This document shows, one piece after another, positions 2,771-63,190 of a stretch of DNA of 64,000 bases; positions within the stretch are counted from its first letter, which is position 1, and the number at the start of each line of letters is the position of its first letter. Where the stretch lies: positions 32,001 through 96,000 of IMG/VR virus record IMGVR_UViG_3300024999_000048. One strand, given 5' to 3'. Under the pieces are notes generated by a model, which was not told the DNA's origin, did not search any database, and saw only the letters and a program-made list of their open reading frames with translations. This stretch comes from a virus. The translations under genes were made by a program, and so were the position numbers.

Positions 2771-5399
2771 ATTGTAAAGGAGAGATTATAAAAATGTATG
2801 AACTAACAAATAAAGACGAGGCATTATTAGATTGTGCTTTAGGTTTAATGAATAATGGAATGGAATGCAGTGATTGTATATTAAATTCATGGGAAGATTG
2901 CGTAAGTAGAATCTTCAAAGATGATGTAAGAGAATTATTAACTAAGATGAAAATAATGGATAAGAAATGGAGAATGCTAAAAATGAATGAAGATTGTTAT
3001 AAAGTATATGACAATAAAGAGATTAGTCAAATTATAGTCGAGATAAAATTTGATGCAAATATAGAAAGATCAGCTTTTGTGCCAGTAGCGAAATATGATT
3101 ATGAGTTTAGTGAAGGTGAAGTATATTTATGTTATGCGGAAGAACGTAAATTTTATAAGAAATATAATACGTGGAAGAAAGCAGTAGAGAGAAAATTCAA
3201 ATTATTTATTCCAGATGATATAAAGGAGGGGGAGGAGATTAAATAAATGACAAAAGACATAAACAAAATCTATCAATCAAAAGGTTATCAGAATCGCAAA
3301 GAATTCATTGAAAGTTTAGTGGAAGATGTTGATATTCCTTTGAAAAATGCATTGGATATTCTAGATAATAAATATTTCGATGAATTGGTTTGGTTGCTGA
3401 GCCATGAGATTGATGAGAAAGTTGAGGAGAGTGAACAATGACTAAAAATATATCAAATTACACAAGAAAACAAAATATTAAAGAGTTAGTTGACAAAATC
3501 ATAACTAAAACATTTGATATAATCCTTTACCCCTTACGTCTAGCATATAAAAAATATGATGGTTCTGATTTACAATCCAGAAGAAAAGTTAAGAAAGCCT
3601 ATGGTAAATTGATAAATAATATTTATAGAATTTTATTAAATGAAGGCTGTGTTTATGTCACTGATTTTTATGTCGGTCAAGAAAATGGTTCTTATGATAT
3701 TATTTCGATAGGTGAGGAATTTGTTTTGCTACATCATACAAAGAAAACTGCAAAGGTTATTTTTGATGAGATAGAAGATATTTTAAGAGGTGATGAAAGT
3801 TTAGTAGTTGATGATTATAGTGTTGGTGATTTGTTTAAGTATGGCTATTTTAAGGAAGATGGTAGAGTTATTAAGGCAAGTATGAAAATTTTTATATAAG
3901 GAGGAGATGTAAATAAATGTTAGAGTTTTATAAAATTAAGAGTCCATTTGATGGAGATGAACAATATAGTTCTGGCCTCAGAAATGGATATATCCACAAA
4001 TCCAAGAAAGGTAAAACATGGAATTCTATTGGTCATGTAAAAAGTCATTTGTCTATGACTCAGAGATTTGATAGTAAAGCATTTGAATTGTTTTATGATT
4101 CATGGTTGATTGTAAGAATCACATTGGAAGGAATGGAGGATTTAGGAACTGTCAAGGAGTTTAGAGAAAAGAATGGATGTTGGATGGGGTAAAATTGTGA
4201 AATATTTTACATTAATTTTATAGGCTGAAATAGGAGTGATATTTTGAGTTACACCTACAACGAGAAAGAAATAAAAACTAAAGAAGATGCAATTAATATT
4301 TTAGAAGAAATTAGAGCATATCAAGAATTAGAAGGATTTCCATTTGATTTTGGTAATGGATTAATTCAAAACGATTTGTCTTATGGTACAGAACATGTTT
4401 ATTGGAAAATGGATGCTCAAGTTTTAGAGGATATAATTGAAGATTGGGAAGAAGATATTGAATGGGCAAACTGGTTAAAATCTCAATCAAAGAAGAAATA
4501 TAAGAAACAAAAACTAAACAGGTATTATAGAAAAACAATTGATAAGAGAAAATTAATCAAATTATCTAAAACTTCATGGTGGATAGTATATTACAATGAA
4601 AAAGAAAACAGATATATTCGATGCTATTATAGTGGTAGGAAAAGTTATGCAAAATGGTGTTCTGATAAAACGGTAAGGAATAGCAATGATTTTTCGTTAA
4701 TAGGAGCTGGATATAGGAAATGTTTTAATTATTGGTATACTGTGTTTTAAGAGAATAATCAAAATAAAATGTATGATTTATTCTATGTTAAGGAGGTGAA
4801 AACAATGAAACAAACATTAGGTAATTTATTAGATAATATAACTAAAATACTTTATGAACATAATTCAGAAATAATGTTATTAAACGACAATATTCCAGAA
4901 GATGAATATGATGTAGAAGCTTTAAATATTGTATTAAAGATTTTTGAATGTGACAATGCTACAGAGGTTAAAAATATTGTTACTGATACATTTGTTGAAT
5001 ATTTTGGTGAAGGTGCTGTAACAAGAGAACAGGATTATACTAATATTGCAAAAGAAATTTGGATCTTGTGGGAAGATTATATTAATTATAATATGAGCAA
5101 GTAAAAATAAGAGAAAAGAGGAAATAAAATGAGTAATGGTTGGATTAAAAATTTATCATCTGAAGATTTCTATTTTATTCAATTTAACAATTATCTAGGT
5201 TGGGATAAAATAAATGAAAAAACTCCTTATTATGTTTTATTAGAAACTATAAAAGGAAAAAATAAATCATCTCAGGATATAGGAGTTAAATTTGATGATA
5301 TTTCACATGGTAATTTCTATTGGAAAGGGTAATTGGATGGATGATTTTGAAGAGTTTAGGATTGAATGTGATAATAAGAGAAACGGGAGGGATAAATAA

Positions 5400-5780
5400 A
5401 TGAGCAGGGAAATAAAATTTAGAGCATGAGAACCATTAAATAAAAATATGATATATTTTGATGGTTTTATTCCATTCCAAATAGGAGAGAGATATGTTGA
5501 GGGAGCTTTAAGTTCACAGAATCAAGAGAAAAGATATTTAACAACCATGAATTTCGATGCTATTGAAATGATGGAATATGTAGGATTAAAGGATAAAAAT
5601 GGTAAGGAAATGTACGAGGGAGATATCTTACATATCGAAGGAAGAGATATCTCTCAACTTTTATATTTTGAAGATTCAGCATTTCAAACAGATGAATTTT
5701 TATTATTTGATGTAAAACTATTAAGAACTATAAAAGTCGTTGGTAATATTTACGAGAATTCAGAATTGTTAGATAGGTGA
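5400..5780 (+). pseudogene. YopX-family protein interrupted by an in-frame TGA
   Basis: ATG 5400 gives MSREIKFRA*EPL..., TGA at 5427-5429 where YopX has W (IKFRAW); downstream MEYVGLKDKNGKEMYEGDIL and VVGNIYENSELL are classic YopX motifs. Confidence 0.8.
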
Positions 5781-6389
5781 GGTTATTGGCAATAAATATG
5801 ATAATATTAATTTGTTGGAAGGAGTAGAGTAAATAAATAATGATAAAACAAGATAAAATAAATTTCATTAAAGAATGGTATACATTTAGAGAATATATGT
5901 GTAAAAAATACAATGATATTTGTACAGAATGTCAATTGTATGAATCTAGTGATGGATGGTCTAATGAAAATGGAGAATATAAATATAGTCATAATTGTAA
6001 ATATGATTTTGAACAAGGTTTTGCAGAAGAAATAATTGAATTGATGGAAAATAAATAAAAAGAAAAGAGGTAATTAATATGATCGAACAAGATATGATGA
6101 TTTTACAATTTGTAATGCCATATGATAAAATTTTAAAAGATGAAAACGCTTATTGGGAAGAAGATACCCAAACTATGTATTCATCTGAGAGATACTTGGG
6201 ATTAAGAGAATTTAATAAACATGGGTTTAGAGTTTTGCAATTTGTACCTAATCGTTATGAAAATCATAAAGCAGAATGGGTTCTAGTAGAAAAATTTGAA
6301 TAAAATTACATTGTTTGGGTTTGCACAAATAAAAGACAAATATTAAAGGTTATATATAAATAATAAAATAAATGGAGGAATAATAATTA

Positions 6390-7073
6390 ATGGCAAAAGT
6401 TAAAAAGGATAAGAATGGTCTAGTGGTAACTTATGATAAAGATAGAGCATCAATTTTGCAAGGAGATTCATGGGTATTCACCGATAGTTTAAATTTAGCA
6501 GAAGTTTTAGGAACAGAGAGAAAAGTAATAGTCACCAAAATAAAAGATGTTTTAAAATTTTATAAATTGAGTAGCGAGAACCACATCCCAGAAATTTATG
6601 AAATTGCGTATTATGTTAACTCACAAAACAAGAAACAACCTTACTACAAAATGTCTAAGTGGTTTACTATTGAGGTGTTAAAAAAGTGTAATCGAAAGAA
6701 TAGTTATTTAGCCAAAAAAGAATTAGAGAGAATAGGAGTTTATGATGTTAGAGATTTACCAAAAATAATCTCAGAGAATATGTTTTATAATATATTAACG
6801 GGACTATTTCCTAAATTAAAAATACATAGACAACACAAAGTTGAAAATTGTTTTGTTGATTTTTATATAGAAGACATAAAATTGTTTGTTGAATTTGACG
6901 AAGATTACCACAAAAATAAGTTACAAAATAATGCTGATAAAATAAGGGAAATAAAAATATTAAATTATAATGACAATAGTATTATTCGAGTAGATAAAAA
7001 TGATATATATGATGGATTAAGGAAAATAATATTAATAGTTAGTGATACGTTAGGCTTAAATAATGCAATATAA
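6390..7073 (+). CDS. Rha-like regulator fused to DUF559/Vsr-like endonuclease domain
   Basis: N-term TDSLNLAEVLG...YVNSQNKKQPYYKMSK (Rha-like); C-term RQHKVENCFVDFYIEDIKLFVEFDEDYH (PD-(D/E)xK/DUF559-like). Confidence 0.65.
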   Translation: MAKVKKDKNGLVVTYDKDRASILQGDSWVFTDSLNLAEVLGTERKVIVTKIKDVLKFYKLSSENHIPEIYEIAYYVNSQNKKQPYYKMSKWFTIEVLKKCNRKNSYLAKKELERIGVYDVRDLPKIISENMFYNILTGLFPKLKIHRQHKVENCFVDFYIEDIKLFVEFDEDYHKNKLQNNADKIREIKILNYNDNSIIRVDKNDIYDGLRKIILIVSDTLGLNNAI

Positions 7074-7090
7074 AGGAGTTTTATAAAATT

Positions 7091-7657: not shown

Positions 7658-10600
7658 ATTTTCGAATACTTTGAAATCCAGAACTTATGGGATAATTATA
7701 AAACAATAAATAAATTTATACAGTCTATTGATTTTTGTATTGATAGACTGTATAATAGTATCAAGGAGTAAGTCAAAGGAGCGTGTTGCATTTATGAAAG
7801 TTAAAATCACAAAAGATGGCGACAATGACAAAATGGTTATACTAAATGTTTTAGATTGGAGTGCAATGAATATTAGTGACTTGATAGGCAAAAAGATTGT
7901 GAATATAGTCCTTGACAATAAGTATGAAGAAACTACTTTAGAATTGGAGTAATTCCATAAGTTTATATTTTCATGCTATCGTGAAAGGAAGGAATATCCT
8001 AAGAAAGTATATTTGGAAGATGCGTTACTTCATAATCGCATGTTAGAATTTTTAAAGTTGCTTTAAATTATATTGAAAAGGGTGATAAAAAATGGAACAA
8101 TTATTAGATGCCACAATTATTTTAGATGCAGAATTAACACCCGAACAATTGGATGCGGTAATACAATCACTAAAGGATGATTCGGTAAAACTACTCAAAG
8201 AATTAGAACTGATGAGAGAGAAAAAGAAATTAATATGGGGTTACTAAATATAATCCCATATTTTCATTCGAAATGTTGCTTTTAAGCTATAAAATATAAT
8301 TGAAAAGGAAAGTGTAAAAATGAGATATTTTGAAGTAATAATGAAAAGCGGAGAAAAGAATCATCTTTCATATGATGCAGTAGAAATTCAAAGAGATGGA
8401 ATATCAGAAATTATTAAAGAAATTGATAGGAATGATTTTTTGAGAGAAAAAGAAGGAATATGTGAAGAATTGTTGTGCCATTCATGCGAAGAAAATAAAT
8501 GCAGTATTATTTAATACGAAAAATACATTTAAATGAAAGGGGTGTAAGGCAATGATTAAAATTTGTACAGCATGTGGTCAAGAAATAGACACAAAAGAAC
8601 AACCATATTTCAAAATTGGTAGTAAATATATCTGTGATGATACTGTTAATGTAGATTGTTGTACTATTTTCTTGAGTTGGCACAGAAAGAACGAAGATAA
8701 GACTGAATAAGTTGGCACTTTTATTCCAATTAAAATGAGAAAAGGAGATACATAATGGAAACAATTAGACAAACAATTCTAATTAATAAACCTAAAATTC
8801 TTAACAATAAAGAACATTCATTTTATGATTGGGGAAATTATATCAAAGAATATGTTGATGTATTAGAAAAACAACTTTGCGAATTATTTTCTAATGCTCA
8901 TAAATATTTCTGTGATAAAGAGAGTAAATTAGTTGGAAGAGATAGTTGGTTAGGGAATCATATCAGACCAAACAAACAATTGTATATTTATGATTTCTGG
9001 GAAATGGAAAATATCGAAGAATTTAGTTTTGGATTTAATTCAACTAGAGGCAAGGATATCGGTAAATTAGTTGTGGATATTAAGTGGGTGTAAATATTTT
9101 GAATATTAAGGAGGTTAATATTATGCATGGAATTTGTAAAGAGTGTGGATTTGAGGGAGATTGTATCAGTGCGGAAAATGATTTATGCGCCGAATGTAAT
9201 GAAGATATTAGACAATGTGAAATTTGTAAATTCCCATGTCGCACTATAGAAGAACAAACTAGAAAAATTGGTTTGAAATCATGCTTGAATTGTAGTTGGG
9301 AAGGTTGTACTAGTTATGGGCTTGATGAAAAGATTTGTGATATATTTAATGCAAAAGATAGTTTGAAATGATGTTTTCCTAGTATTTTAGAAAAGGAGTG
9401 ATAATTTATGTCAAGAAAAGAGAATTATTATGCAACTACTGTCCAAAGATATTTACCTAAAGCACAAGAAATTTGGAAAGATTATAAAGTTTCACATCAG
9501 TTTATTATTATTTGTAAAACTAACTCAATTGCTAATGCCAACAAAATTGCTCAAGATTTTGGGTTTGAGAAGAATACATTTAAAAGTGATGTAACACGTA
9601 ATTATATTAGAGCAGAAGAAATTAAATCTTTAGAAGAATCAAAGTCAAAATTTATTATTCGTCCTATACAAGCATGGGAAAATGAATCTAAAGATATTAT
9701 GGAAGTATTGTAAAAGGAGGATATTAATAATTTTGATCCCTTAAAAGAATCGTTTGATAGGTAGGGGTAAATTAATGTTTAAAAGATGCTCTAATTGCAA
9801 ACATAAAACCGTAGGAGAAGATAAAGAACCTTGTATTAGTTGTAGATGTAATTGGGTGGCTGAACCAATTGATAAGAATGATTGTTATACTATTATCACA
9901 CATTTCGGAGATTTAAAAGGTAATGCATATATAGATAAGGATTTATATTGTGAAACGCAAGGATGCCATAGTAAACAATTTGTAATAAATTGGGATGATG
10001 GATCTATCACTATTAATTGTAGTTCTGGTTTAGCTTGGATTAATAGAACAACTCTACAATTAGTACAATATCCTCATCATTAAAATTATCCTACGAACTC
10101 ATACTTTCATCGTATGTCAATTATGGGTTTGAAAATCAAAGCATTTGGAAGTATAATTAAGTATTAACAAGTATGAGGGAGGTAAATTTATGATAACTGC
10201 AATAAAATTATCAAAAGAAGAAGTTTATACCGTTATTTGTAATCATTTTCAAATAAAAGGTCATATGGTTGCAGGAATTGAATCAAAAACAAAATTATTC
10301 AAAGGATTATACGAATTAAAAGTTATGTTAGTTAATGGGAATTATTTTATTTTAACAAAAGATGAGGCTTTTACCATAGTATGTGAATATTATCAAAGTA
10401 AAGGATATAAAGTTAATGGAATTTATATCTTAAATAATGGAGACTCTTTTGAACTGGTTACTCGTTAAATAACACGAAAGGTAGGTTTTAAGTTATGTTT
10501 GGCTACAATTATAAATACAAATATATCTATTTTTTAAAGATAAAAGAGTCCAAGATACAGCAGATTTAGTAGCTACAAGACTAGAAGAGAGTGAGAGATA

Positions 10601-11423: not shown

Positions 11424-14400
11424 TTCCGAGGAAACAAAAGATTTAATTGAAATTGGAGGAGGAATAAACATATGAAATCATGGAATGAAGTTAAACCTAA
11501 TATGGTAGTTTATATTAAAGATCCAATCGAAGTCTATGAAGATGAAACTGCAATTGGAAGTACAAAAGCGTTTCAAAAAGCTCAGATTAATGTGTGTGAT
11601 AATGAGAGTGTAGAAGTAATTATTGATGGTGGGCAATTTGATGGTTATGATTTCTATTGGTATATCAAAACAGATAAACCTGAAGAATTATTAACAAAGG
11701 AAGAATATAATTTGCTAAATATTAGCGAAAAGAAGATTTGGATTGAACTTCAAAAGTATTTAAAGAAAATTGATGCGCTTAAAGAAAAATCGGAAGATAT
11801 TTTGGAAATTAAGAGATTAATTGAGAAAAATCAATAGAACGAAAGTAGAGTTTAAAAAGAAAGGGTGATAATTATTTTAAAAATTACTTTTACTCTAAAT
11901 ATACCTTGGATCACAGGAGAACCTGCTGGAACAATTATATCAATTGAGCAACATACACAAAGAGAAGTTAATCAATGGGTTAAACATCATAAAAAGCATT
12001 GTGGTCTAGATGTTATAAGTATTACTGGCGAAGCTACGGATACATTAAAAGATTCGTAACCGAATGAAATAGATAATTTAATTGAAAAGAGAAAGGTGAT
12101 AGATTATGAATAAAAGTCTGAATATTATTGTTGACACAACCTGTTTTGATGATTACAAGTCAATGATAGAATTAGTAATTATCAATATGTTCGCAGAGAT
12201 AAATGAAAAGTTGTCCAGAGGTGACGAAATAAGCAGAGAGGATAAGAACGCAATTCTTATTATGTTTCAAGTAGTGCATGAAGATTGTAAATGCATAAAG
12301 AAAATTAACATTAATGAGGATGAACGTAGTTATGAAGGCTCTATACAAGAATTAGTAAACCTAGCTTCTGCAAGTGGAATTATGAGTCACTTTGAGAAAT
12401 TGATAAAACAGTATGTTAATGTTTTTGGCAAATCAGGTGAGATATTAAAAATCACAATATGCAACTTTGAAGACAGCAAATATAAAGATAAATTAAAGTA
12501 TCAATTAAAAAAATACTTCGACAATGAATTGATTGAATTAAAATGGAAATAAAACAGTGATTTTAAAGTATTTATATGTTTGAAAAACGGAGCATTACGG
12601 AGCAAATGGAAGCATGGAGGAGATAGAAAATGGATAGTAAATTACAAAGATTAAATTCTCTAAATTATCAAGCGTCAAAACTTTTAGAATCATATTCTGA
12701 TATTTTTATTGAGAATTATGGATTAGCAATTGAATTTGGAAATGTTTTGGTCACAATTAATACTTTGATTGAAAAAGAAGAAATTGAATAGGCATGGCAA
12801 TTTCGATGAATAGGAGAATTAAATAAAATGAAATTATTAATGTGTAAAAACTGTGGAGACGTTTTTAGTCTTGATTATCAAGAAAAACATTGTAAATGCA
12901 AAGGTATAAAAGGTAAATATTTAGATGATTTGAATGCCGAATATTATGGAGATGATGCAATCCCGTTAGGTTTTGCAAATAATAGTATATCTTTTGCTAT
13001 TAATAATCAACCATTGAATGGTATGGGATATAATTTTAATGCTTTTGTTATTCCTAAAGAATGTGATACTTTTATTAAAAAGTAAGTTTAATATAATAAA
13101 CAAATTTACTTGAAAGCGAGGAAATATAATGGCTGGATGTGGAATAAGACGATGTTGTGAAAATTGCAATAATCAAGTAGAAGTTAAGAAATATGTTTAT
13201 TATTGTAAATTCGGAGAAAAAGTATTTCAGGAATGTCAAGTGGAGTATCCAGAAGATTTAAAAGCAGGGAAACTTTATGATCCAATGCTAAAAGATTTAG
13301 TTTTGAAAAAAGATTGTTTCGTATTATTGGAAGGTTATTAGGAATAGGTAGGAGGATATCAGAATGAATATATGTGAAAAGTTAATTTGTCATTCTTGTG
13401 AAGAAAATAAGTGTGACATAAAGGAATTTGCTAAGTTAAATGGTATTTCAGAAGATATGGCAAAAGAGATTCTTGAAGAATATCATGCAGACCAAGAAGC
13501 TCAAATGCAAGAAGTATATGAGGATATTATAAGATCATCTCGTTAAAGGCATAAACCTTAAATCTGTTATGAAGGAGGGTAAAAGGTGTGTTTTCTACTA
13601 ATGAAGATGTAACAATCCATGATTCTGATTTTGAATTTTATTTAAAAGGCAAACCTACTGGTGAATATGCGAGAGGTAGAGTTATTAAGAAAGATGGAAG
13701 TATATATCATGTAAAACTATATTGTAATGGCGAAGTCTATGCGGTGATAGAAAAATTCTTATATAGAGCATGGTAATAAAACAACCATTCTATAGACTTT
13801 ATTACTGGAAAATCATAGTAATATCAAGTATAATTAGCATGAGAGGTGTAAATCATGCAAGATATTATCAATACTATTAAAATATCAAATAATCCCAAAG
13901 AAGTAAAACAAATTTTAAAATCATTGAAAATTAAAGAAGTGATTAAAGTAGCGAATGGTTTGAATGTTAAGATTAGAGGCAATGAGAATAAAACAGAGAT
14001 TATTAGTAATATTATTTTGGAAATTATGAAATAGAAAGGTTGTTAATGATATGCAAGTAGAAATTATTCACACAAATGAAACTGGGCAATGGCAATGGGC
14101 AGTACAATTTGCCGGAACAGATATGTGGTTAAATGCTTTTGAGACGAATGAATTGGCAGTAGAATATTGTGAAATTAACGGTTATATAATTAAGGATAAG
14201 GAGTGAATAATATTTGAAACTAAATATTAGGCAAGTAGGTCTATGGTGGAAATGGAATGAATATTGCAACAATTGTGGTAAACAAATCAGAGATGACAGT
14301 TTTTCATCAAGTGTCAAACCTGACGAGGATAAGACTGATTATTGTTTAGAATGTTTAAATAAAATTCATAATGGTATTGTTGACAAGTCTTGAGTATAAA

Positions 14401-14426
14401 TGCAAAAATAAAATTTATTAATGTGG

Positions 14427-14456: not shown

Positions 14457-17400
14457 AGGGTAAGAATAAATTTTGAGAGGCGGAGCAAAGATGGGATATG
14501 GAAGAATTCAGTCTCTATCAGAGATAGAATTACATCAAGCATTTGACGAGATTGTGAAATACAACAATGGAGGATTTCTTGCAGAAGATGCACTTGTGAG
14601 ACAAATTAGGAATGAATTTGCTAAAGAAATGGGTAGCGAATCTTTAGATATGGGATGTATTCATGCTTGTAATGAAATTACATTTGAGATTGCTAAAAGA
14701 CATTATGATCCAAAAGGTAAAGAATATCGTGTATATTATAAAGACCACGCAAATACAACGTGGCCTGAGTGGTTTGATTTTGCTGGATCTACAATAGAGG
14801 AAGCAGAAGAAGTTAAGTCAAGAATTGAAGAGGTTGAAACTGTTTATGATGTAGAGATTAGATGCGTCTAGTCTCATCTCTATAAAATTGAGAGGTGGAA
14901 TTATCAATGAACTCAAATGAAAAGTATTATGAATTTCTTGACAATCTAAGAGAAAGTGGAGTAACCAATATGTTTGGTGCAACGGAATATTTAATGGAAG
15001 CATTTTCTGATTTATTAGAAGTTAAAGCAAGGGAAATATTGAGAAGTTGGATGAAGACTTTTTCAGATAGGCATCCAGAATAAAATCATCAAGGATGAAC
15101 TTTAAAGAAATTAGAAGGGAATGATTTAATTATGCTTCAAATGTATAAGGGATTTTATTATAATGGAGATTATGCGATATATGGTGATGTATGGAATAAA
15201 GTACCTAATAATTTTTTTGGTTCAGGTATAGCCAGAAAAGTATTATATGAAATTGACAAATATTATGAGTATTTAGATAAAGAAAAATATATAGACTTTA
15301 AAGATTATATTGATAAAAATATTGATGATTTAAATTATAAATTAAACAACATAGATATCCTAATTGAAGATGGTTTAGATATTGGTGGAGTTTCTATGAT
15401 TATTCAATTGGTAAATGGCACTTCATTAATTATTAATACAAGTGAATGGGGATCTATCAAAAGACTTTAAGAATAATGTGATACCTTTTGAAAGAAGATT
15501 AGAAAGGATGTGATAAATCATGAAAACATATATGACAATTTTTATCCCAGAATTAGAAATTATGAAAACAGTTAGCAAAGACATTATTAAAATTGATTTA
15601 GATAATCCATTTAAAGTAAGTGGTAAGAAAGATAATTATTATAAAGTTGATCCTTATTTATATTCTAATAATGGTCATATTATTGATGCAATAAATGAAA
15701 AACAGTTGAAAAATTTAAACCACTATGAAAGTGTAATTATTGTTAATGGTGAATATTTATCAGATATATTAGAATTAGAATTTAATACTCTGTATCATCA
15801 GTTAAATAATATCGGAGTTATAGTAACTTATACAGGTGATTGTGATGAATATGACGGTGAGCAAATTGCAGTTAGTAAAATGATTGCTTATGCAAGTGAA
15901 TTAAAGGCGATTTGCGAGAAGATAATTTAAGGTATTTAAAGAAAGAGGAGACACATAAAAATGGATGAACGTACAACCATGGAACATGAAAGTTTTGCAA
16001 TGTTAGGTCTTACAAGGAGTTCATGCAGTTTTAGTCAAAATCTATTTGGGAGTTCTATTCAACATAGTCATACTATTAAACTCAAAATTGCTCCTGCTAA
16101 AATTGATAGAATGCTGAATAGGGATTGGTTTCACGCTAACACAAAACCTTATATTGAAGTTGAGATGTCATACTCACAATTTGCTGAAGCAATTACATCA
16201 ATGAATGTGGGAGATGGCGTACCAGTTACACTCAGACGGTTAAATGGTAAAACGATTGAAGACTGCCCACAATTTGATAAACGGCAAGAATTTGAGAAAG
16301 AGTTTGAAAAGGAAATGCAAAAAATCGGAAAGTCACTTAGGATTTTAACTGAACAAGCTGAAGCATTATTAAGTGAGAAAAAACCACCAACAAAAGCAGA
16401 TAAAGAAGCTATTCTTAAAGGAATTAAGATGTTACAGCAAGAGATTGAAAGCAATGTTCCTTTTATTCAAAGTAGTTTCAATGAGCAGATGGATAAAACT
16501 ATTCTTGAAGCAAAAGGTGAATTTGAAGGTTTTGTAATGCATAAAGTAATTTCTACAGGATTAGAAGGGTTACAAAAAGAATTTAAAATGCTTGGAAATA
16601 ATGAGGAATAATCAAATCATATTATTCTTCAAATGGAATTAGAGGAGGAAGTAAAATGTATAAATATATTGGTGAACCTAAAACTGAATCTGAGCAAGAA
16701 GTTATGTGGAAAACAGCAGCAATATTAAGAAGTTTTATGTCTTTAGAAGATTCAGAACAACTAGAAAAGAAATTTATATTATATAGAGATGAACACTCTG
16801 CAAACAATGAAGAGTTTGAACCTTGGTATGTTTGGTTTATGAAGCAAATTGATATTAATGTGACGATGAAAATTTAATATTAGTACGTTGAAAGTGTGGA
16901 TTGATGGGATATTAGAAAGGAATGAATAATATGAAATTTATTGCTAATGTTTTAGTTAAAATTGAAGTTGAAGCAGATACAGAAGAATTTGCAAAAGAAT
17001 TATTATCCGAACAATTAGTTAATCTTAATATTGGTTCTTTAGGTTATCATGCTGATCATGAAGATTATTCATTACAAACTATTGGGAGAAGAGTAATGAG
17101 TATACAAAATGACAATGTAAGATTTGTGCTAAAAGCAAAAGATTCTGGACTGTATTTAAAATCAAGTGAACATGGAATCAATTCCTATACAGATAATATT
17201 AGTTTAGCTTTTGTGTGGAAATGTAACACTAGTATTTCTGAATTAAAAATTGATGAAGATATGTATGAAATATTTGTAATTTAGTATTAAAAGGAGTTGA
17301 AAACAATGGCATCAATCACTCTTAAAAACATAGCAGAGCATATTATGCTAGGAAATGCTAAAACAAGTGAAGAATTTAATGAAAAGATTAAAGGCCAATG

Positions 17401-21583: not shown

Positions 21584-21600
21584 GGAGGTAAATATAAAAT

Positions 21601-22110: not shown

Positions 22111-22152
22111 CAAACAAATATTTTAAAGGATATTTAAGGAGGAAGATAAATT

Positions 22153-26441: not shown

Positions 26442-26546
26442 TCCAACCTTATAACCCTACTGTAACAAGGGTTTCAAAATCAACGATTCCCATTTTGTCC
26501 CATAAAAATCAAATTTTATGCTTTTTGGAAATTATAAAATAAATAC

Positions 26547-26576: not shown

Positions 26577-26608
26577 AAATTGAGAAATAATGTTTAAGGA
26601 GATGTAAA

Positions 26609-48510: not shown

Positions 48511-49525
48511 AAGAGAAGTTTTATTCTAATTAAGAAAGGTAAAACATATGAATGTAAATCTATTTGATTTATCTAAAGCAGAAATAGTAAAACCCATTAT
48601 TCATAAAAATAATGGTACACTTCGAGACGTAGGCAGTTCAGTATTAAGACATCCAAAGACTAAGGTATATTTAATTTATGAATTCAATTTTGATAATCAA
48701 GATATGGTAGTTATTATTGTGGAATATTGGGTTGGAATACGTGGAGAATATTCTAGAGAAATGTTGGTGGTGGATAGGAATTGTATTAAGAAAATTCCTA
48801 ACAAATTGTGAATTTATTCTATGCGGAAGGATTAGATATGGATGAATTTGAAAAACTAAAATATGATGGCGATTATCACACTTATGGATATTTTAAAACT
48901 CATAAACTTAAAAATAGTCAGACAATAGGGATATATTTTTGGAAACATGAGCAAAGCAAATCTAATGATTATGTAATATTATTAGCAATTGCAAATAAAA
49001 AGAAGCATCTCAGGCAATTAATATTAGGTGAAAAAGATATATTAACCGATCATGAAACTGGCAAATGTGGATTAGAAGGGTTGCTATGGGCAAAGAAACA
49101 GATAGTTGAATTTGAGAAGTCTAATTGTTGTAAAGATGGAGATTTTATTAGTGTTTATTGGACTGATAATAGAAGAAGAGATGTTTATGAATATGGATTG
49201 AGAAAAATGGGATTTGTGGTTGGGTATCGGGACGGTAGGAAATGTTTGAGTAAGAGAGTAGTAAAATAAAGAAAGAGGTAATTAATAATGAATGAAATGA
49301 GTGAAACTATTAAAGAAAAATTAGATAAAGATCCAGGTTATCAAGCGTTTAGTAATTTGATGGATATGGTATTTGAGATTGCTGATGAATTGCATAATAA
49401 AATTGAATTAACTAATGTTGAATATGAATTTATTGATGCTTTCGATGAATACATTGCTTCTATGATAGATGAAGAAGAGGATACTGTAGAATAGAAATTA
49501 GTTTTATAAATTATAAAATAAATAT

Positions 49526-51576: not shown

Positions 51577-52807
51577 TCTATTCTTCCTCAATTCAAATAT
51601 CGAATTCGAGGGATATGTTGAAAATGAGTTGATTAAAAATGAGTTTCTGGATAGATGAAGGATTAATAGGTTCTATATGTAAAAAATGTGATCGTTGTAT
51701 ATTTTATGATTGGTATTTATGTGAATTTGCACCAAACGATAAGAATGAAGATGGGGCATTATCTCTTCCGATTTTAGAGTGTGAAAATTTTAAATTAAGA
51801 AAGGAAGCATAAAACAATATGAACACTAAATGGGTTGATTTTATAATTTTAGATTTAACATGGGATGAAGAAACTATTTTTACTAAAGAATATTTTGAGG
51901 AATATGTTAATGATAAATTTGTTGCAGTTAAATTAAATGAAGATGGTAAACCTTTATATATTTGGACAGAAAAATATTGTTTTACAATTACTACATTTAA
52001 AAAGATAGTAATAGGTAGTCCTGCTATGATTGGAATACCCAGAAATCCAGAGTAAGGGTAATACCAAGAAATACCAATTTGCTAGGATAAGGAGATTATA
52101 AAATGGATTTTGAAAATATGACGAAAGATGAATTATTAGAAGTTTTAAAAGAAAGTTATATGAAATTAGTTCATCTTATACCATATAGTCCAACTTTTAA
52201 AGTCGGGAACTACTACAGATGTGCACAAACAGGAGACGATGAGATAAAAATATATGGAGATGTTATTTTATATTTAACTTTTGAAGAGACAGATAAATAT
52301 TTTAGGAAGTAGGATAAATTATTAATTAATTTAAGAGTAAGAAAGGAGGACATATTATGCATAAATTTACTGATGAAGATATGAAGAAATATACTTTAAT
52401 GAAAGTTAATGATAAAAAAGGATGTACAATGTGTTATAACCAAACAGAGCATATTGACTATATTTGCGAAGACAGAATGTGTGGTACGGAATGTTCAGAA
52501 ATGTTTTTATGCACAAATGAATAAATGTGAATAAAATTGTTTAATTTAGAAAGGAAGCGTAAAAGAATATGATTAAATATTATTGGAAAGTTATTATGAG
52601 AAATGGAAATGGTTATTATATTGAATCTGAAGTTAATAATATTGAAGAACTTATTAAAAATAGTTTTAATAAGTTTCTCAAGATAGTTTTGCTGTATTTA
52701 ATTTACATAGTTACAACTCTATAACGCAAGAAAATAAAATATTAATTAGATATTCTGAAATTTCAGAGATACTATGGAATGGAAAGTAGAAAAGAAAGGA
52801 TGATAAA

Positions 52808-53083: not shown

Positions 53084-55868
53084 GATCAATGGATTATTTG
53101 AATTAAAGAAAGAAAGGAAGTAATTTAAATGGGATTTTGTAAATACGTAGAATGCATAATTACTCAAGATTACATTTGTTGTTTGGAATGTGATAAATTG
53201 CAAGAATGTAAAAATAAATGTTATTGTTGTAATGCGATAGATGTATACGATCATCCAGGAGATTGTAGTGAATATTCAAAATAAAATTAAAATACAATAA
53301 ATTTAGGAGGAATAAAATATGAGCAACAACAAACAAGAAATTTCTATTGATCGCGTAAAACAAATCACCCAAGAGGAATTACAAAGATATGTAAAAGGAA
53401 ATTTCTCAGAAGAAAGTTTAAGAGCGACCATCCAAAGTCAATTAGAAAATTCTGGGACAGAAATAGTTTTCAAACATTTAGGTCTGAGAAAAGATTCATG
53501 GAGTAGTAAATGGGAATTAAATGGTGGATACGGAGGTCTTAATCAAATAGTAAAAAATCAAGAACTTCTTATTAATGAAATTGGATCAAAAGTAATCCAA
53601 GAAATTGTTAAAGATGTTACACCAGAAGACGTTCTATCTTCTTTAACCAAGCAAAATATACAATCACTAAAAAAGATTTACAGAGAAACATTATTTGATT
53701 ATTTTAAAGATGAAGTTAGAAATCTTGCAATTGAAAATGGGAAAGAACAGGCTCAAACACTGTTTAAAAAGTATTTATACGAAGAAGATAATTCCGAGGA
53801 AATTTAACTTTTAATTGAATAGATATAAATAAGGAGAGATAATATATGATATTTTTTACATATGATGAGGATAATTATGATAGTGAAGAGGTTAGAGAAT
53901 CGGTAAAATACGAGGAATTAAGAAAAGTCAAAGGAATATGGATTGATAGGAGATATGCTTCTTCACCAGAAGACATACCTTATTATAAAGGAAATAAAGA
54001 ATGGGCAGACAAAGAGTGGTATGGAGAAGGAAAAAATCATAGGGTTACTGATGGTATGATTGAAAGAGATTTTGAGGAAGAATTTTCAATCATTGAACTA
54101 AATTCTTTAGATGATTTATTGGAATTTCAGAGAAAATATGATACTAACGCAAGTATTAGTATTGGAAGTCATTATTTTTACAATGGTGAATTATTAAATA
54201 CATTTAATTATGACTATCATGTGGAATAATATTTTAAATTTATGGTTTCGTTCTAGAAAGGAGATTTATAACATTGATCATTTATCCAGATAGAGACTAC
54301 TCACACATCTTATTATCTCAAGGAAGACAATGTGGAAAAACTAATATACATCTTGCTATTTTAGAAGCAGTTATGGAAAGTAAATTAACTAATAAACCTG
54401 TAAAAATAAGTTTTGGTATGAAGTTAATGAGAATAGAAGATTTATAGGAGAAATACAAATGAATTTAGAAGAAAAGATTAGTGAATTAAGAATGGCACTA
54501 GAATGTCTAAAAGACGAATATATTCAATATGTTGATAATGCCTGTCATTGTGATGAATATGATGATAATGAAGAATGTCCATATTGCTATGCTAAAAGAG
54601 TATTAAGGGAAACTAAGTAAAAAAAAGAATAATTTAACCAAATAAAAGAAAGGAAGTATTAAAATTATGAGTGTAGATTATTATTCATGTGATTATTGTG
54701 GAGAAAGTGCCTATGAAGAATTTGTAAAAAGTTGTGAAAAATGTGGTCACAGTATTTGTACAGAATGTGTAGTAAATGATGATATAAATTCTGAATATGC
54801 AAGTAGATATCGTGTTAAATATGATGGTTCTGAAGAACAAAAAGAGAAATATGGAATTACTGAAGAAGATATAGAAAAAGGATGGATTGAAATAGGTAAA
54901 CCTATTCAGGATACAGGTGTTGATCCAAAGTATTGTCCTTTTTGTAATGGGAAAATGATTCATAATAATGATTTATTAGACTATTTATTGAACAAATATA
55001 ATCTAACTAAAGATGAAGTTAAAAAAGAATATTTAGGAAGGAAGTTGTAAAATGAAAATTGTAAAAAATATTATACATAATAGAGAACCAATTTATATTG
55101 TAAAAATGTCTGGAGATTATAATGATGGAGATTATTCGTATTCCGAAGAAGAATTTGTTGAGTCAGCATTTAATGAAATTGCAGAATGTTTATTAGAAAT
55201 TGATAAATTGGTTGGAAGGGATTATGTGAATGGGGATTATGGATATGAATATGTAGAACGACATATTAGAAAGTTACAAAAACAATATAAAATGTATTTT
55301 GATTATCCTTTAGGAGATACTGCTTCTGATGCACCGATTCATAGCTTAGATAGTTTGGATATTCAATTTATTGATATCGATGGTCGAATATATGATGTTA
55401 GTTTAGAGGATTAAAGGAGAAGAAAAGGATGTTTAAAATGAATAAAGATTATTTAATAATTATTGGTGCATTGGCAAAATTAATTGGAGAAGCTGGATTA
55501 GCAGAAAAAGTAAATTTATTAATATCAGAAGAGAATGCTAATAAATATTTAGACCAACTTGATGAATATGGTAACAATACAACTAAGGAAGAAAGGGAAT
55601 CTCATTTAATGGATTTATTCTTGAGTAATTTTTCAAAACTATAGAATTGCATATTTAATTGAATGAAGGGAGGTGATATATTTAATGGATGCATTTAAAT
55701 TTGTCAATATTACTAGAAAATATAAGAAATGTCCAAACTGTGGAAGTAGTTGGAAAGATACAAAATTACAAGTAAGTGTAAAAGATGAAATTGTAACAAT
55801 CAGTTGTGAATGTGGTTTCTTAAAATTGGTTGATGAAAATAATAAAGAAATTAAAGGAGGAGAATAAA

Positions 55869-56915: not shown

Positions 56916-57769
56916 AAATGGCAAATAAAACTAACGATCAAAAGATTATGGAATTAAAAAAGCAAATCGAGGAAAAGAAAATTAAGTTAGGAAAGTCTCA
57001 AAAGTTCACACCAATTACTAATTGTTCAATTGAACTAGACGGTGTAAGAGTTAATATTCAAGTTCTTAATAAAGAGCAATTAACTTATCTATTAGTTAAA
57101 CTTAATTCATATGCGAAGTCTGCAAAAGAATTGGAAATTGATTTTGTTATATCTGGATATCATGTTGTGGATTGGATTACTGATATTAAATCTAAATTAG
57201 ATTTTGTAAGTCGCAAAGAAGAAGAGAATAAACTAAAAGTGATGGAATCTAAATTGCATCAATTGCTTTCTAATGAGAAGAAAGTTGAACTTGAGATTGA
57301 TGAGATTATGAAGAGTTTGTAGTAAGTCGAGAAGTGAAAGTGCCTTGTAGCAATGGTTACAAGGCATGACATTTCCCTTAAAGTGAATATTTGCACGGAT
57401 TAGAGAGGAGATAAATTATGAAAATTGGAGATAAGGTAGAAATAATTAATATTGAAGGTATGTGGGATAAAGAAATATATTATCATGGTTGGGGATTGAC
57501 GGATAAAGAAACTCTAAAAGATTATAATGTTGAAGTGCCTGAATTTAATAATATTGAATATTTTGAAAATGGAGACATCGCTATAATTATTCCTTCTGGT
57601 TCAGAGATTATTGAAGATAGTTATATGTTAGAGATTGAATTGACAGATAATAATGGAAATGATTTTAAATGCCATTCTCAAACTTATTCTTTAGATGAAT
57701 TAAAGTCTTTTTGTGAGATCAATTAAAAAATCTGTTTTAATGGAGAAATAAAAGAAAGAGGTATTAAAT

Positions 57770-58100: not shown

Positions 58101-60014
58101 GAAAGAGGGATGAATTAACAATGAAAAGATTTAAAACAAAAGTAACCAGAATCGATGAATACATAATTGAGATTGATGAGAATGTAATTGACGAACAATG
58201 GATGGATGATTTTAGACATGTATTTTTCTCACTTTATGATCATTATGAACATGCCGAACATCTTGCACAAATTAGAGCTAGACTTGGAGAAGGTTTTATC
58301 GAAGGTTATGGCAATGTAAAAATTAATGGCAAAGTGCCTTGGTATGTTACTAAAACAGAAATAGAAAAGCGTTTGCCATGTGAGGATGCTTTTAATATTA
58401 TTATCAAAAGTGAAGATCAAGATTGTGAAGTTGAAGTGGAGGAGATTAAATAATGGAAAATTATTATGAAGTAACTAAACAATCACCATTACATAAAGAA
58501 TATATGGATTATATAGTAAGTGATAAAATAATGAGGGAAATTTCCCATGAGTTTTTATCTAACAATAATATTAACACAAAAGAATATGCTTCAACTAAAG
58601 ATACTTTTTATATTATTCCAAATGAAAAAGATATTGAGGACTTTGGTAAACTGCTTAATAAAGAATTAGAAAATGGTTTAAGAGCATTTAAAGCAAAATC
58701 TAAAATAGGTAAAGCATGGAAAGATACTCTTAAAGAGAAAGGAGTACAACCATTACATAAACCAATGTTAATGCTATATTTTAATGTTTATGGTGAAACA
58801 CAAAGTAGGTTATTTGCCATTGAAGATAAGATATATTGTTCTTTTAAGAGTGAGCATAATTTTGAAAATCCTGAAGGATTTATTGAATTAAAAGCAAGTG
58901 AATTTTATAAAATCGTAGAAGATGAAAATGAAAGAAGGAAAACAAAGCATGAAAATAACTAAATATAATACTAAAGGTGCTGTATGGTATAAACATAAAG
59001 AGTTAGATAAAGAAGGCAAAATGATTTCTATATCTAACACAGGAAGAAAAGAACCTGATTATTTTAAAACAATCAGAAGAGAATTTAGTGATTTAGATCC
59101 ATATAGGAGTGAACCAGAAGAAGTTGAAGATTTCATTTATTATCTCAATAAAGAAGTAGATTTAGAGGAAAATGCTTATGATTTTGATATGCCATTACCT
59201 GACAGTACAAAAGAATATTTTTTAATCTTTAATGATAAGATTTGGCTTTACATAGTTATATCTGATGAATATACGGGAAGTGGAGAATCTTCAACTTATG
59301 CTCATATTAATAGTATTTTAGTTCCAGAAGGTACAGACATTGAAAAGGTCAGAGAAATTAAGGATTGGTTAATTAAGGGTGGATTTAAGTTATTGGAGTA
59401 GGAATTTCTTGAAAAATACAAAGTAAAATATAATATTGTGTTTTCTGAAAGTGTTGCTACAGTAGGCTTTTAGAAAACACAATATGGCATAAGACTAATC
59501 ATTTAAAGGATAAAGAAAGGTGATGTAGATATGACTTTAGAAGATGCTATTATTCATGCAGAGGAAACAGCTAAAGAAAACCTTTGTAATGCATGTGGAG
59601 ATAATCATAGGCAATTAGCTGAGTGGTTAAAGGAATTAAAAGAATACAAATTTCATTTTGGAAACGACATGGCGAAAAAGAAATTAACAAATTGCGGTTA
59701 TTGGGATGGATTAAAATCAAGAAAAGATCATAATGCATCTATAAATATTATGGACGATATGATAAAAGAATAGGGTGTTAAAATTAACCTTTCATTCGGT
59801 TAGAGAAAGGAGTTAAGAAAATGATTTGTAAATCATGCAGCGGTAAATCTGTAGCAAGAGGAATAAAATTTATTAATTGTTTTAGATGTGGTAAAAAGAA
59901 AGTAGTTAATTGTCTTTATCAAAATTACTGCGAAGACTGTTCAAACGAATTACAAAAATGCCAACGCTGCGGTGAAAAGATAATCGCAGAAACATCAAAG
60001 GAGGAATTAAAGGA

Positions 60015-60545: not shown

Positions 60546-61078
60546 AATACAAAGGAAATCAAAAACTGATTTGCTAGGAAAGAAGTGATAAAATAATGCC
60601 ATATGATTGTTCAATTACAAAAAGAAAAGGTTGTAATTATTGTATAAGAGGTAAGGAATTATCAGAAAATAATAACTTATCTTTTTGGATTAATGATAAT
60701 GATTGTAAAGGAAATGCAAGAATTAAAATCAGAACTGTAGCAGGAGTGAATTCTATGAATGAGCATATCAATATTAATTATTGCCCTATTTGTGGTAAAG
60801 AATTAACTTAAAAGAGGAGTTTGATTCTATGTTTAAAATAATATGTAGTACATGTAGAAATGAAGTAAATCTAATTAGGCCAAAAGATAAAGAAGAGCAT
60901 TCATATAATGAAAGTGAAGGTTGGTATGTCACAGAAGATAACTTATGAAGTTTTGATATTCTTGGCGAACATGATCAAATTTGGATAACTTGTAATGGTT
61001 GTGATGCAAAGGTTTGGATGTTTACATAATCAGCTCAAAACTCATGATTGATGTTATTAAAGAAAGGAATGATGTACA

Positions 61079-61834: not shown

Positions 61835-62061
61835 CACATAAAAATACCGATTCTAGTTAATTTGAAAGGAGTAGATTAATAATGATTAGAAAGACTCCGT
61901 ATTATTGCGAAATATGCAAGAAGCATTTTGATAAACCAAACATTGTTAAAGAAAATCATTGTGAATATAACGTATGCCCTCACTGTAACAGTAAATGGAT
62001 TTCACGACCATGTTTTATTAATTCTCGATAACTCACTGTTTCTTAGAAAAGGATGTGATTA

Positions 62062-62271
62062 ATTATAATAAGAGGTAAAAGAAGATTAATAAATTGTTAT
62101 GAAGATTCATGTCGCGAAGACATAATATCAAGTATTAAAGCATCTATGTCATTTGAAGGTTTAGAACCTAGTGATTATGCTGTTAGTTTAATTGACCAAT
62201 ATGCAGATGGTAAAATTACAGTGGAAGAATTTATAAGTAAGATAAAAGAAAAACATAATATTGGCAATTAA
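62062..62271 (+). CDS. VbhA-family (Fic) antitoxin-like protein, ATT start (absent from ORF track)
   Basis: ...SIKASMSFEGLEPSDYAVSLIDQYADGKITVEEFISKIKEKH; (S/T)xxxE(G/N) inhibitory motif and Y..G.I....F pattern. Confidence 0.7.
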   Translation: MIIRGKRRLINCYEDSCREDIISSIKASMSFEGLEPSDYAVSLIDQYADGKITVEEFISKIKEKHNIGN

Positions 62272-63190
62272 AAATGCTAGTTTATAGGAGGATTTATATG
62301 GATTGGAGAGGCAGAAAATATTATGTCGCCAATTTTTCACCGGAATCTTATGACATGAGGATTAAAATACTTAAAAATATTAATGAAATTAAGTTGTACA
62401 ATCCAACAAAATATGATTTTAATATAAAACTTCCAGACGAGAAAGAACCAAGAGGGTATTATCATGTTCTAATTGGATGTAGAATTAATAAAAAAGATAT
62501 AGTGGAGTTTGAACTAAGGAAAGCCGAGAGAAGAGATGAAAATTCAAATTGGAAAGAGATTCAGAGAGATGTTAGTAAAAAATATTTTGATATATATATG
62601 GTCAAGAAATGCCATATAGAAAATGTGACTTAAACCCAAGCAAAAGATGCAATCATTGTATGGGTTGTTAATATCCGTTAAATCACAAATTTTAAAGTAA
62701 AACATTAGGAGGTCAATATGAATAAATTTAAAAAGTGGTTACAAATAAAACTAAAAGATTTTCTAGATATAGGAAATATAGAATCAAATTTTAAAGACCA
62801 TGAGACATTTAATAGCATCAGATTTTCAGATATTGAAAGCGATATACATGATAAAACTTCATATCTAAGAAACCTTATAAATAATAATGTAAATGATATC
62901 TCACATTGCCAAGAATCAGTAAATATATTACATAATACAATTGAGAATATAGTGCATATTGGAACCGATGTATATAAATCAAATCAAGGTCATAGTTGGG
63001 CTATTGTATGTGTAGAAGGTAAGATGAATTTAGTTAAGTTTGTTGATTTAAACAGACAGGACGGTAGAGAAGTATTAGACTTTTTGAAGAGATATGAAGC
63101 AGGAAGACACTGTATAGACACTCCATATAAAGAAATGTTTTATGACGGGTTATTTAAATTCTAGTATTCGTTCTTAAATTAATAAATAAA

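Follow-up and report, generated by a model that had tools for sequence, protein, structure and literature searches.

Inverted-repeat sites with junction-specific centres between the genes of a large SPbeta-like phage: candidate joints for gene exchange

Symmetric sites in the gaps between genes

The stretch analysed here, called the window below, comprises 64,000 nucleotides, bases 32001-96000 of a 121-kb viral record (IMG/VR record IMGVR_UViG_3300024999_000048; genome G000 in our comparisons). The record has a G+C content of 28%, nearly every open reading frame (ORF) lies on the plus strand, and G000 shows only distant nucleotide similarity to large Bacillus phages; among its relatives in the viral collection are contigs rated as complete, with lengths of 227 and 230 kb. 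Pfam matches in the window comprise AgrB, MazF-like and DndB-like proteins, an NAD-dependent ligase, Thg1, NADAR, a DNA methylase and an HNH endonuclease, as well as a recombinase-fold protein of the MrpR type at 39566-40582. Rfam families and tRNAs were searched for in the window and none was found. Many of the gaps between the genes contain a 26-bp dyad, in which two inverted 10-bp arms surround a 6-bp centre. We show here that the centre of each dyad is specific to its junction and is conserved across related phages, and we argue that the dyads are probably joints at which these phages exchange genes.

Thirteen dyads had been listed in an original prediction, made from the letters of the window alone, and all 13 read exactly as written there. 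The prediction had also proposed a comparison with shuffled DNA; in this comparison the pattern stands far above background and is specifically intergenic. With up to two mismatches allowed, TCCN4AAA-N6-TTTN4GGA occurs 21 times in the window, where 6.06 matches are expected (standard deviation 2.44; none of 100 shuffles reached 21). In the intergenic DNA of the whole record the same setting gave 22 matches against 1.69 expected, and the numbers were 9 against 0.06 with no more than one mismatch and 3 against 0 with none; the ORFs of the record contain 5 matches with up to two mismatches, where 9.25 are expected. Chance or an AT-rich background as the source of the dyads is ruled out by these shuffle comparisons.

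Searches that started from other premises were run on the record as well. A blind Gibbs sampler found ATAAAA-N6-TTTTAT in 66-72 of the 157 intergenic stretches to which it was applied. An iterated weight matrix found 67 sites in the whole record, including 57 outside ORFs. With a symmetrised weight matrix and a score of at least 10, there were 70 sites in the record, compared with 11.2 in block shuffles, and 42 in the window, of which 35 lie outside ORFs (Table 1). A spacer of six letters is preferred: N6 gave 32 sites against 8.6 in shuffles, N7 gave 22 against 7.6 and N2 gave 18 against 6.9.

Both arms follow one 10-bp consensus, T-C/A-C/A-N-A/T-T-A/G-A-A-A, and across the 57 non-ORF sites the composition of each column agrees between the left arms and the reverse complements of the right arms. 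At the same 57 sites the number of Watson-Crick matches between the two arms was 316, compared with 320.7 +/- 8.7 when the arms were re-dealt among sites (z = -0.54). There was no systematic excess of G-U pairs over A-C mismatches, and the arms of a single site are often complementary at just 4-6 of 10 positions. Because the arms share their composition yet do not co-vary, the dyad points to a symmetric DNA recognition site for a protein and not to a hairpin in RNA or DNA. The flanks outside the 26 bp carry about 0.1 bit of information, and conserved promoter hexamers are absent.

The placement of the dyads between a stop codon and the next ribosome-binding site (RBS), as originally described, is borne out by the stop and start distances measured for the record's 58 sites outside ORFs. 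Among the 57 sites with a measurable upstream distance, 37 begin no more than 10 nt after the stop codon; 18 overlap the stop, and the median distance from a site to the next start is 25 nt. A site is present in 20 of the 49 gaps that are 40-59 nt long and in 2 of the 91 gaps shorter than 40 nt, and the dyad largely accounts for the length of such gaps. Three further statements of the prediction also hold. A regulatory island was said to be free of sites, and no dyad lies between 31547 and 41146; reverse-complementing the left arm at 22105 gives the right arms at 52078 and 60570; and the sites at 11425 and 53793 have their arms in common and different centres. A paralogous duplication as the explanation for the identical arms at the last two sites was rejected, because the proteins that neighbour them are unrelated.

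Each centre is a junction-specific address conserved in related phages

Related genomes were brought in as two groups, G001-G003 first and G006-G009 later, and these have dyad densities of 3.5-7.1 per 10 kb. More distant loci (L005-L008) have about 1 per 10 kb, which is the level in shuffles, and two complete records, G004 and G005, are free of sites. Four records from different samples (G006, G007, G008 and L023) represent one phage, with 100% identity over 185 kb. The count of same-centre pairs used G000-G003, G006, G009, bases 1-19600 of G007 and bases 20595-61742 of G008; sites closer than about 100 nt to a contig end were excluded, and L023, L026 and L029 were left unused.

These eight independent segments contain 337 sites, and 192 of the 46,107 inter-genome pairs of sites have an identical centre. 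A total of 59 centres are common to 2-7 independent genomes, and their order was concordant in 961 of 968 comparisons. For G000-G003, 63 of 64 same-centre pairs lie on one collinear chain, and there were no reverse-complement matches. When identical 6-mers were scanned at different offsets from the site, 124 pairs were found at the centre, which is a local peak; the adjacent offsets gave 93 and 105 pairs and the far flanks about 30. Repetition of a centre inside a genome was observed once, against 6.3 expected, and no palindromic centre occurs in the four genomes checked.

We also chose site pairs by the homology of their flanks only, irrespective of the centre. Among the 54 pairs obtained in this way the centre was identical in 37, one letter off in 4, two letters off in 2 and at least three letters off in 11. 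The test of conservation omitted the last 11 pairs, which were read as different addresses; in the 43 same-address pairs the 37 identical centres compare with 23.3 expected. Identity in these 43 pairs amounts to 96.9% in the centre (250 of 258 letters), 89.6% in the aligned flank and 74.1% in the arm on the homologous side. The centre is the best-conserved part of the site, which is the reverse of how an ordinary spacer behaves.

Each centre is an address of its own junction, conserved and collinear across the relatives. The array had originally been thought of as shuffled; since the centres are conserved and collinear, the order is in fact kept. The comparison with core sites of tyrosine recombinases, also made at that time, stands in part. 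Such cores have two inverted arms of about 9-13 bp, which the 10-bp arms match, and a fixed 6-8-bp centre of free sequence, which the N6 centre matches, with N7 and N2 somewhat raised too. The centre, on the other hand, is not merely variable, as had been assumed, but a junction-specific address.

The same sites are present in the Bacillus phages SPbeta and phi3T. In the region 84-134 kb of SPbeta, TAAAA-N6-TTTTA occurs 22 times where 0.7 is expected, the N5 form occurs once and the N7 form never; phi3T has 20 strict TAAAA-N6-TTTTA sites. The two phages have 16 centres in common, all of them collinear and none repeated within either genome, and at these common addresses the 16-bp core agrees in every letter. 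Six junctions have one flank of about 100% identity beside an unrelated one, and at four (centres AGACTG, TATTCC, TTCAAT and GTTTTA) both flanks are unrelated. The annotations of both phages contain a conserved XerD-like gene, yomM. As a separate observation, a repeated element similar to TTAGAATAAAAATAAAAT corresponds, as its reverse complement, to the published SroF box of phi3T and abuts the dyad core at several junctions (SPbeta 113664 and 132747; phi3T 107932 and 121065; loci L075 and L077).

Flanks, arms and breakpoints at shared centres

In 137 of the 192 same-centre pairs neither 90-nt flank could be aligned above the 99th percentile of the null. The arms of the first 49 such pairs have identities of 0.55 and 0.61, compared with 0.54 and 0.57 for random pairs of sites. 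Of 64 same-centre pairs for which the products of the neighbouring ORFs were compared, 52 have no related product on either side and 12 have one on a single side. Same-centre pairs with unrelated flanks have nothing but the centre in common.

Where only one flank is homologous, the arm goes with its own flank. In 27 pairs with upstream-only homology the left arm is identical at 7.07 and the right arm at 6.22 of 10 positions; in 23 pairs with downstream-only homology the values are 5.61 for the left and 6.96 for the right arm (Mann-Whitney p = 0.0036 by pairs, 0.016 by address). This match of each arm to the homology of its own flank is what one would expect after a crossover within the centre or at it. 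Site 10089, compared with G009, has the right arm and the downstream flank in common and a different left arm. At the GTGTGG address, for which 11 distinct sequences are available, upstream and downstream classes reassort freely: upstream class U1a occurs with two downstream classes and U1b with two, and downstream class D1 occurs with three upstream classes.

One address was also searched for in viral contigs with a 15-letter pattern, which gave at least 120 loci, mostly from unrelated viruses. A site with a weight-matrix score of at least 9 was present at 15 of these loci. Six were kept (L089, L102, L149, L158, L162 and L165), by the rule that the G+C content is no more than 0.31 and the site density at least 4.4 per 10 kb, and nine were dropped.

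Synteny with the relatives was counted on plus-strand parts only (G006 1-130000, G007 1-19651, G008 excluded), and junctions with gaps longer than 400 nt were dropped. Site-bearing junctions were kept in 7 and broken in 110 cases (n = 117) and site-less junctions were kept in 225 and broken in 479 (n = 704), with the reservation that the ORFs were called by a crude ORF-plus-RBS heuristic and not by a gene finder, which inflates the counts of broken synteny. The contrast has a Fisher p of 2e-10, for pairs that are not independent. Breakpoints between related phages had been predicted to fall within the spacers. The site junctions are indeed mostly broken, but some of the breakpoints lie outside the centre.

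The gene of the HNH endonuclease (18973-19740) is bracketed by the sites at 18906 and 19725, the centres of which (CTAAGA and CTTTGA) are two letters apart. In G001 a 95%-identical homologue of the gene upstream of HNH is directly followed by CTTTGA. The HNH gene looks like an inserted cassette with a duplicated centre that has since drifted.

Within the set of four records from one phage, G007 has a wholly different segment of about 20 kb left of its GAATAG site, in which both the centres and their order are the same. The set contributed one extra junction only, which is off-site in G006. Because G008 continues about 41 kb past the end of G006, the genome of this type is probably larger than 227 kb; the set may include a chimeric assembly.

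Table 1. Dyad sites outside ORFs with a weight-matrix score of at least 10, and promoter boxes, in the window. P, listed in the original prediction; PWM, position weight matrix score; genomes, number of genomes with the same centre.
Feature	Position	Strand	Centre	PWM	Genomes	Remarks
Dyad site	4760..4785	.	TGTATG	10.9	3 (independent)	9 nt after stop
Dyad site	7667..7692	.	TCCAGA	15.4		centre seen here only
Dyad site	7953..7978	.	TTATAT	11.4	4	
Dyad site	8264..8289	.	TGTTGC	15.8		
Dyad site	9359..9384	.	TGATGT	15.3	2	overlaps stop
Dyad site	9737..9762	.	GAATCG	18.1	3	
Dyad site (P)	10089..10114	.	TCATAC	19.0	3	
Dyad site	10470..10495	.	GGTAGG	14.2		
Dyad site (P)	11425..11450	.	CAAAAG	15.5	5	flanks unrelated
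Dyad site	12060..12085	.	TAGATA	13.2	3	
Dyad site (weak)	12545..12570	.	CAGTGA	10.3		
Dyad site (P)	16884..16909	.	GTGTGG	16.6	7 (independent)	flank classes reassorted
Dyad site	18162..18187	.	ATCTAG	15.0	5	
Dyad site	18573..18598	.	CGAGGA	15.5	2	
Dyad site (P)	18906..18931	.	CTAAGA	14.9		upstream of HNH gene; 2 letters off CTTTGA
Dyad site (P)	19725..19750	.	CTTTGA	14.8	5	all flanks unrelated
Dyad site (P)	22105..22130	.	CAAATA	19.0	4	perfect pattern match
Dyad site	23127..23152	.	TATTGT	13.8	2	
Dyad site (P)	23553..23578	.	TGTGGG	18.4		
Dyad site (P)	26498..26523	.	ATCAAA	18.3	6	5 nt before promoter box 26529-26551
Dyad site (P)	31522..31547	.	GAATAG	18.6		same centre in G006 and G007 near edge of their identical block
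Dyad site (weak)	41146..41171	.	AGTTAA	11.6		
Dyad site (weak)	42713..42738	.	TTTGAG	10.5		
Dyad site	48796..48821	.	TTGTGA	14.3	5	
Dyad site	51588..51613	.	TATCGA	16.2	4	after NAD-ligase gene
Dyad site (P)	52062..52087	.	TACCAA	15.3	3	
Dyad site (P)	53793..53818	.	TTTAAC	17.6	4	
Dyad site (P)	57374..57399	.	TGAATA	16.7	2	
Dyad site	57719..57744	.	AATCTG	17.8		
Dyad site (weak)	59485..59510	.	CTAATC	11.5		
Dyad site	60554..60579	.	AACTGA	11.8	3	
Dyad site	60804..60829	.	GAGGAG	15.2		
Dyad site (weak)	61031..61056	.	CTCATG	10.9		
Dyad site (weak)	62264..62289	.	ATGCTA	11.7	2	
Dyad site (P)	62674..62699	.	CACAAA	17.2		
23-bp promoter box	26529-26551					5 nt after dyad at 26498
23-bp promoter box	49508-49530					
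23-bp promoter box	63176-63198					

Some other features were noted beside the sites. Sites with the centres ATCAAA, TTCGAC, ATTGCA and TGTTAT have a related C-rich flank just 5' of the left arm, which ends in CCACTTT-C/A-AAAA or in a TTCAAAA-like sequence; a C-rich stretch is unusual on this G-skewed strand. The flank lies at 26430-26497 of the window, at 27570-27630 and 17810-17867 of G000 and at 2500 of G001, and in the other relatives at G006 18227 and 2218, G007 14058, and G009 15024 and 42387. It could be an accessory binding region or the end of a small RNA. The part of the window from 21601 to 30068 contains a cluster for RNA repair and NAD salvage, with NADAR, Thg1-like, RNA-ligase-like, nucleotidyltransferase, kinase-HD, radical SAM, PRPP-synthetase-like and NAPRT/NAMPT genes.

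Parts of window 16000-24000 are present in 16 public runs, most of them labelled groundwater metagenome, and 7 of the 16 contain at least half of its words. In four of these runs, examined over window 10000-29999, the Logan contigs are 0.3-1 kb long; among 24 listed loose ends (there are 191 more) no clustering at the sites was visible, and no conclusion is drawn from this. A profile search of genome contigs with the MrpR alignment, made for host identification, found no relative.

Dyads as possible joints for gene exchange

A tyrosine recombinase encoded elsewhere in the genome had been suggested as a possible partner of the sites. A single PF00589 protein is in fact encoded in the record, outside the window, at G000 20648-21217 (locus L001 1459-2028; window coordinate about -11350), but its gene is an accessory one. 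The protein has 189 aa and consists of the catalytic domain only. In an alignment with XerA, read by eye, Arg, Lys, His-x-x-Arg, His and Tyr were all matched. It resembles the catalytic domains of Xer proteins and 200-aa DNA invertases, with scores below the curated cut-offs, is about the size of the FimB/FimE type and is also present in G006, G008 and G009. A search beside its gene for an inverted-repeat switch found weak AT-rich pairs only.

The MrpR-like protein at 39566-40582 contains both MrpR domains (E = 4e-18 and 2e-7). Homologues were found in the site-bearing relatives searched that cover the region (G001, G003 and nine viral loci) and are absent from the complete, site-less G004 and G005. 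It was also considered as a possible active recombinase. No nucleophile tyrosine could be placed in it in an alignment to YopR that was read by eye; comparing its profile with that of the 189-aa recombinase yielded no match (probability 0.1), and NCBIfam gave no hit. Its gene lies in the dyad-free island at 32295-41222, together with those for DUF5317, a MazF-like fusion, AgrB and a DndB-like protein, and this island is probably a lysis-lysogeny control module. A different repeated element, a 23-bp AT-rich box whose last letters are the -35 TTGAC of strong promoters of the sigma-A type, was found three times in the window, where 0.04 is expected (Table 1). Two further promoters, outside the window, have boxes that look similar by eye. 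The 23-bp box may be an UP element or the true operator of the MrpR-like repressor, and for the latter role it is a better candidate than the dyad.

We consider it likely that the dyads are junction-specific crossover joints between phage genes. Their link to gene exchange is supported by the observations that junctions with a site rarely keep their neighbourhood and that the centres behave as the segment shared in a crossover. Each joint would consist of the junction-specific 6-bp centre between inverted 10-bp arms of one consensus, to which a dimer most likely binds. When two related phages are in one cell, DNA would be exchanged at joints with the same centre; genes or blocks of genes would be swapped in register between stop codon and ribosome site, with the genes left intact and their order unchanged. 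The unique centres would keep the joints of one genome from recombining with each other. The chemistry would most likely be a conservative site-specific exchange across the centre, as at core sites of tyrosine recombinases with heterospecific overlaps, and the process would resemble a natural form of recombinase-mediated cassette exchange. That a site-specific recombinase performs the exchange across the centre is a proposal to which we give slightly less than an even chance; the enzyme could be such a recombinase, or else a dimeric nuclease whose cuts across the centre are staggered and then re-ligated. The protein on the arms, the exchange inside the centre and the type of enzyme are what we infer from the comparisons, and the complete explanation, protein-bound joints that exchange at matching centres, seems to us about as probable as its opposite.

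Several results weigh against this explanation. G007, with a completeness rating of 100%, has sites but lacks the 189-aa recombinase. A serine (resolvase-type) recombinase was not found in G000, G006, G007 or G008, and the family shares a single recombinase-fold protein, the MrpR-like one, of which the studied members are reported to be non-catalytic. MrpR of SPbeta is described as keeping three of seven catalytic residues and as having no recombination activity (PMC10516654; bioRxiv 10.1101/2025.11.27.690993). Site-less junctions are also often broken (68%), and calculated per junction in G000 the break rate is 0.84 with a site and 0.71 without (p = 0.07). G002 and G009 are identical over all 26 bp and diverge just past the right arm; in some upstream-homologous pairs the homology stops before the left arm; and the edge of the block that is identical in G006 and G007 lies 4 nt after the GAATAG site of G007 and about 600 nt from the same-centre site of G006. 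Furthermore, genes are not bound to a slot. On the 3' side of homologous pairs a site was present in one member only in 31 cases, had the same centre in 11 and a different centre in 3, and Thg1 follows CAAATA in the G000 window and TAGATA in G003. The 11 of 54 flank-homologous site pairs with centres at least three letters apart also belong here. A reciprocal recombinase alone does not explain the conservation of centres within lineages. Finally, in laboratory hybrids of phi3Ts and SPbeta, 15 of 16 recombination sites are reported to lie in long homology, and the remaining joint is described as non-homologous, "following yosA" (10.1101/2020.05.06.055103); a dyad with the centre TATTCC is located at SPbeta 116415.

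Exchange at the dyads could also be the by-product of a site with another main job. The dyads would then bind a dimeric protein for silencing, as a roadblock, for insulation or for organising replication, and recombination would use their short homology of 12-26 bp; we regard this as unlikely, though well worth weighing. The inner letters of the arms together with the centre would serve as a patch for the single-strand annealing or relaxed homologous recombination of the phage, comparable to the PeSLs of T4-type phages and to lambdoid boundary sequences. Breakpoints at the outer edges of the arms fit a crossover anywhere inside such a patch of identity, and so does the complete identity of the 16-bp core between SPbeta and phi3T. 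No universal catalytic recombinase was found in the relatives searched; the annotation of SPbeta includes a Sak4-like annealing protein and a RecJ-like exonuclease. PeSLs provide a published precedent for short regulatory cassettes that drive modular shuffling (PMC2839356). This explanation does not account for the fixed length of the centre, 6 bp between symmetric arms. The 137 flank-unrelated pairs have only the centre and the invariant AAA/TTT in common, about 12 bp, with arms at random identity, and about 12 bp is very short for annealing proteins. The conservation of 97% in the centres versus 74% in the arms would also be unexpected if contiguous identity over the whole site mattered.

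The original prediction had raised a second alternative, in which the dyads are a dispersed array of operators or roadblocks for the MrpR-like repressor. In its favour are the two MrpR domains of this protein and the occurrence of homologues in the site-bearing but not in the site-less relatives, a co-occurrence that is confounded by relatedness. The SroF box (SPBRE), the operator of the MrpR (YopR, SroF) repressor in SPbeta-like phages, resembles the dyad as a repeated intergenic element of 24-26 bp in the same phage family, and its reverse complement adjoins several dyads of SPbeta and phi3T. SroF, the phi3T homologue, is described as clamping its 26-bp box with the core-binding domain over a 6-bp central part, the same lengths as in the dyad, and as a monomer that reads 24 of the 26 bp of this asymmetric box; chromatin profiling of MrpR in SPbeta by ChAP-seq gave ten peaks, all of them in promoter regions with the 15-bp SPBRE motif (PMC10516654; bioRxiv 10.1101/2025.11.27.690993). 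As far as these accounts go, the members of the family that have been studied behave differently from what the dyad would require: they bind about ten asymmetric promoter sites as monomers, whereas the dyads are symmetric, number about 60, are not at promoters and have a free, address-specific centre that differs at every site. For this reason we do not take the dyad as an MrpR operator. Ten peaks in SPbeta also compare with 22 strict dyads in 50 kb, the strong promoters of the present phage have a different repeated box, and an operator would leave the unique, collinear and conserved centres unexplained; altogether this alternative is improbable. Even less can be said for an action of the dyads in RNA, as a weak intercistronic hairpin for mRNA processing, stability or translational coupling. 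The position between stop codon and ribosome site, close before the start, and the self-complementary consensus would suit such an element. The arms, however, lack covariation, for which reason a hairpin was rejected, many of them are poorly complementary, and the address-like centres would remain without explanation, so that we consider it very improbable.

The reading of the dyads as crossover joints can be compared with known systems. Heterospecific lox and FRT sites, used with Cre and Flp, likewise consist of inverted binding arms and a short, asymmetric centre. Recombination takes place only between sites whose centres agree, and a segment that lies between two different centres is therefore exchanged in register and in order. 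They differ in being man-made, with two or three variants and a known enzyme, whereas the dyads are natural, about 35 in the window and about 60 per genome, with degenerate 10-bp arms and 6-bp centres that are conserved in the family. The sites dif and pdif have an 11-6-11 layout with distinct XerC and XerD arms, and pdif sites alternate in orientation. The dyads have 10-bp arms of one consensus, a fixed site order and a unique centre at each site; the system is therefore not of the pdif type that had been predicted, because both arms have the same consensus. Compared by eye with what we take to be the Bacillus dif motif, the outer TCC of the dyad is two positions off and the XerD-side arm is mismatched. 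A likeness to pdif modules consists in the many short recombinase-type sites beside accessory genes; in Acinetobacter plasmids multiple sites of this kind are reported to bound accessory modules in various contexts (PMC6449649, PMC13141974).

Arrays of integrons similarly contain small genes on one strand, each followed by an imperfect inverted repeat. Their attC sites are 57-141 nt long and fold as single strands, cassettes change order, and the system needs an integrase, attI and Pc; integrons in phages are the subject of a published paper (PMC9892861). An integron-like system had been part of the prediction as well. No integron integrase, attI or Pc was found (the integron-integrase model TIGR02249 gave 30 bits on the 189-aa protein, against a cut-off of 265), and the sites are not folded attC, because they are 26 bp long and lack arm covariation; the order of slots is fixed. 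The stoperators of Cluster A mycobacteriophages are 13-bp asymmetric sites in one orientation, bound by the immunity repressor. They are like the dyads in that dozens of short sites lie in short intergenic gaps, and unlike them in having no variable centre. PeSLs of T4-type phages are described as cassettes of a sigma-70 promoter and a terminator hairpin that recombine with one another by homology and even give rise to mini-circles (Arbiol et al. 2010, PMC2839356). Both PeSLs and dyads are short repeated intergenic elements among small genes, non-essential early genes in the case of PeSLs, and both lie at boundaries of indels or replacements, as the synteny counts above indicate for the dyads. 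The dyads differ in having junction-specific centres and neither promoter hexamers nor the covariation of a hairpin, and in this phage the strong promoters are elements apart from the dyads.

We found no published description of these dyad joints in the literature searched. It is conceivable, and we put it forward tentatively as the less probable case, that SPbeta-like phages, ranging from Bacillus phages of soil to the present large phage of groundwater with relatives of 230 kb or more, carry a dedicated, genome-wide and address-coded recombination system, which would comprise about 60 heterospecific joints and a putative enzyme. Accessory genes would be traded between co-infecting relatives one slot at a time, with the gene order preserved. 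The presence of the same sites in SPbeta and phi3T makes the idea directly testable in Bacillus subtilis by ordinary genetics.

The mosaicism of phages is usually attributed to rare illegitimate or short-homology recombination, followed by selection. If the interpretation as crossover joints is true, one large phage family would build mosaicism into its genome, and exchange would be precise, in register and confined to slots. This would explain the turnover of dozens of small accessory genes, which probably serve in counter-defence and host takeover, at a fixed order of genes. The dyads would then amount to dozens of naturally occurring recombination sites that are orthogonal to one another, a counterpart in nature of cassette exchange or of ordered sticky-end assembly.

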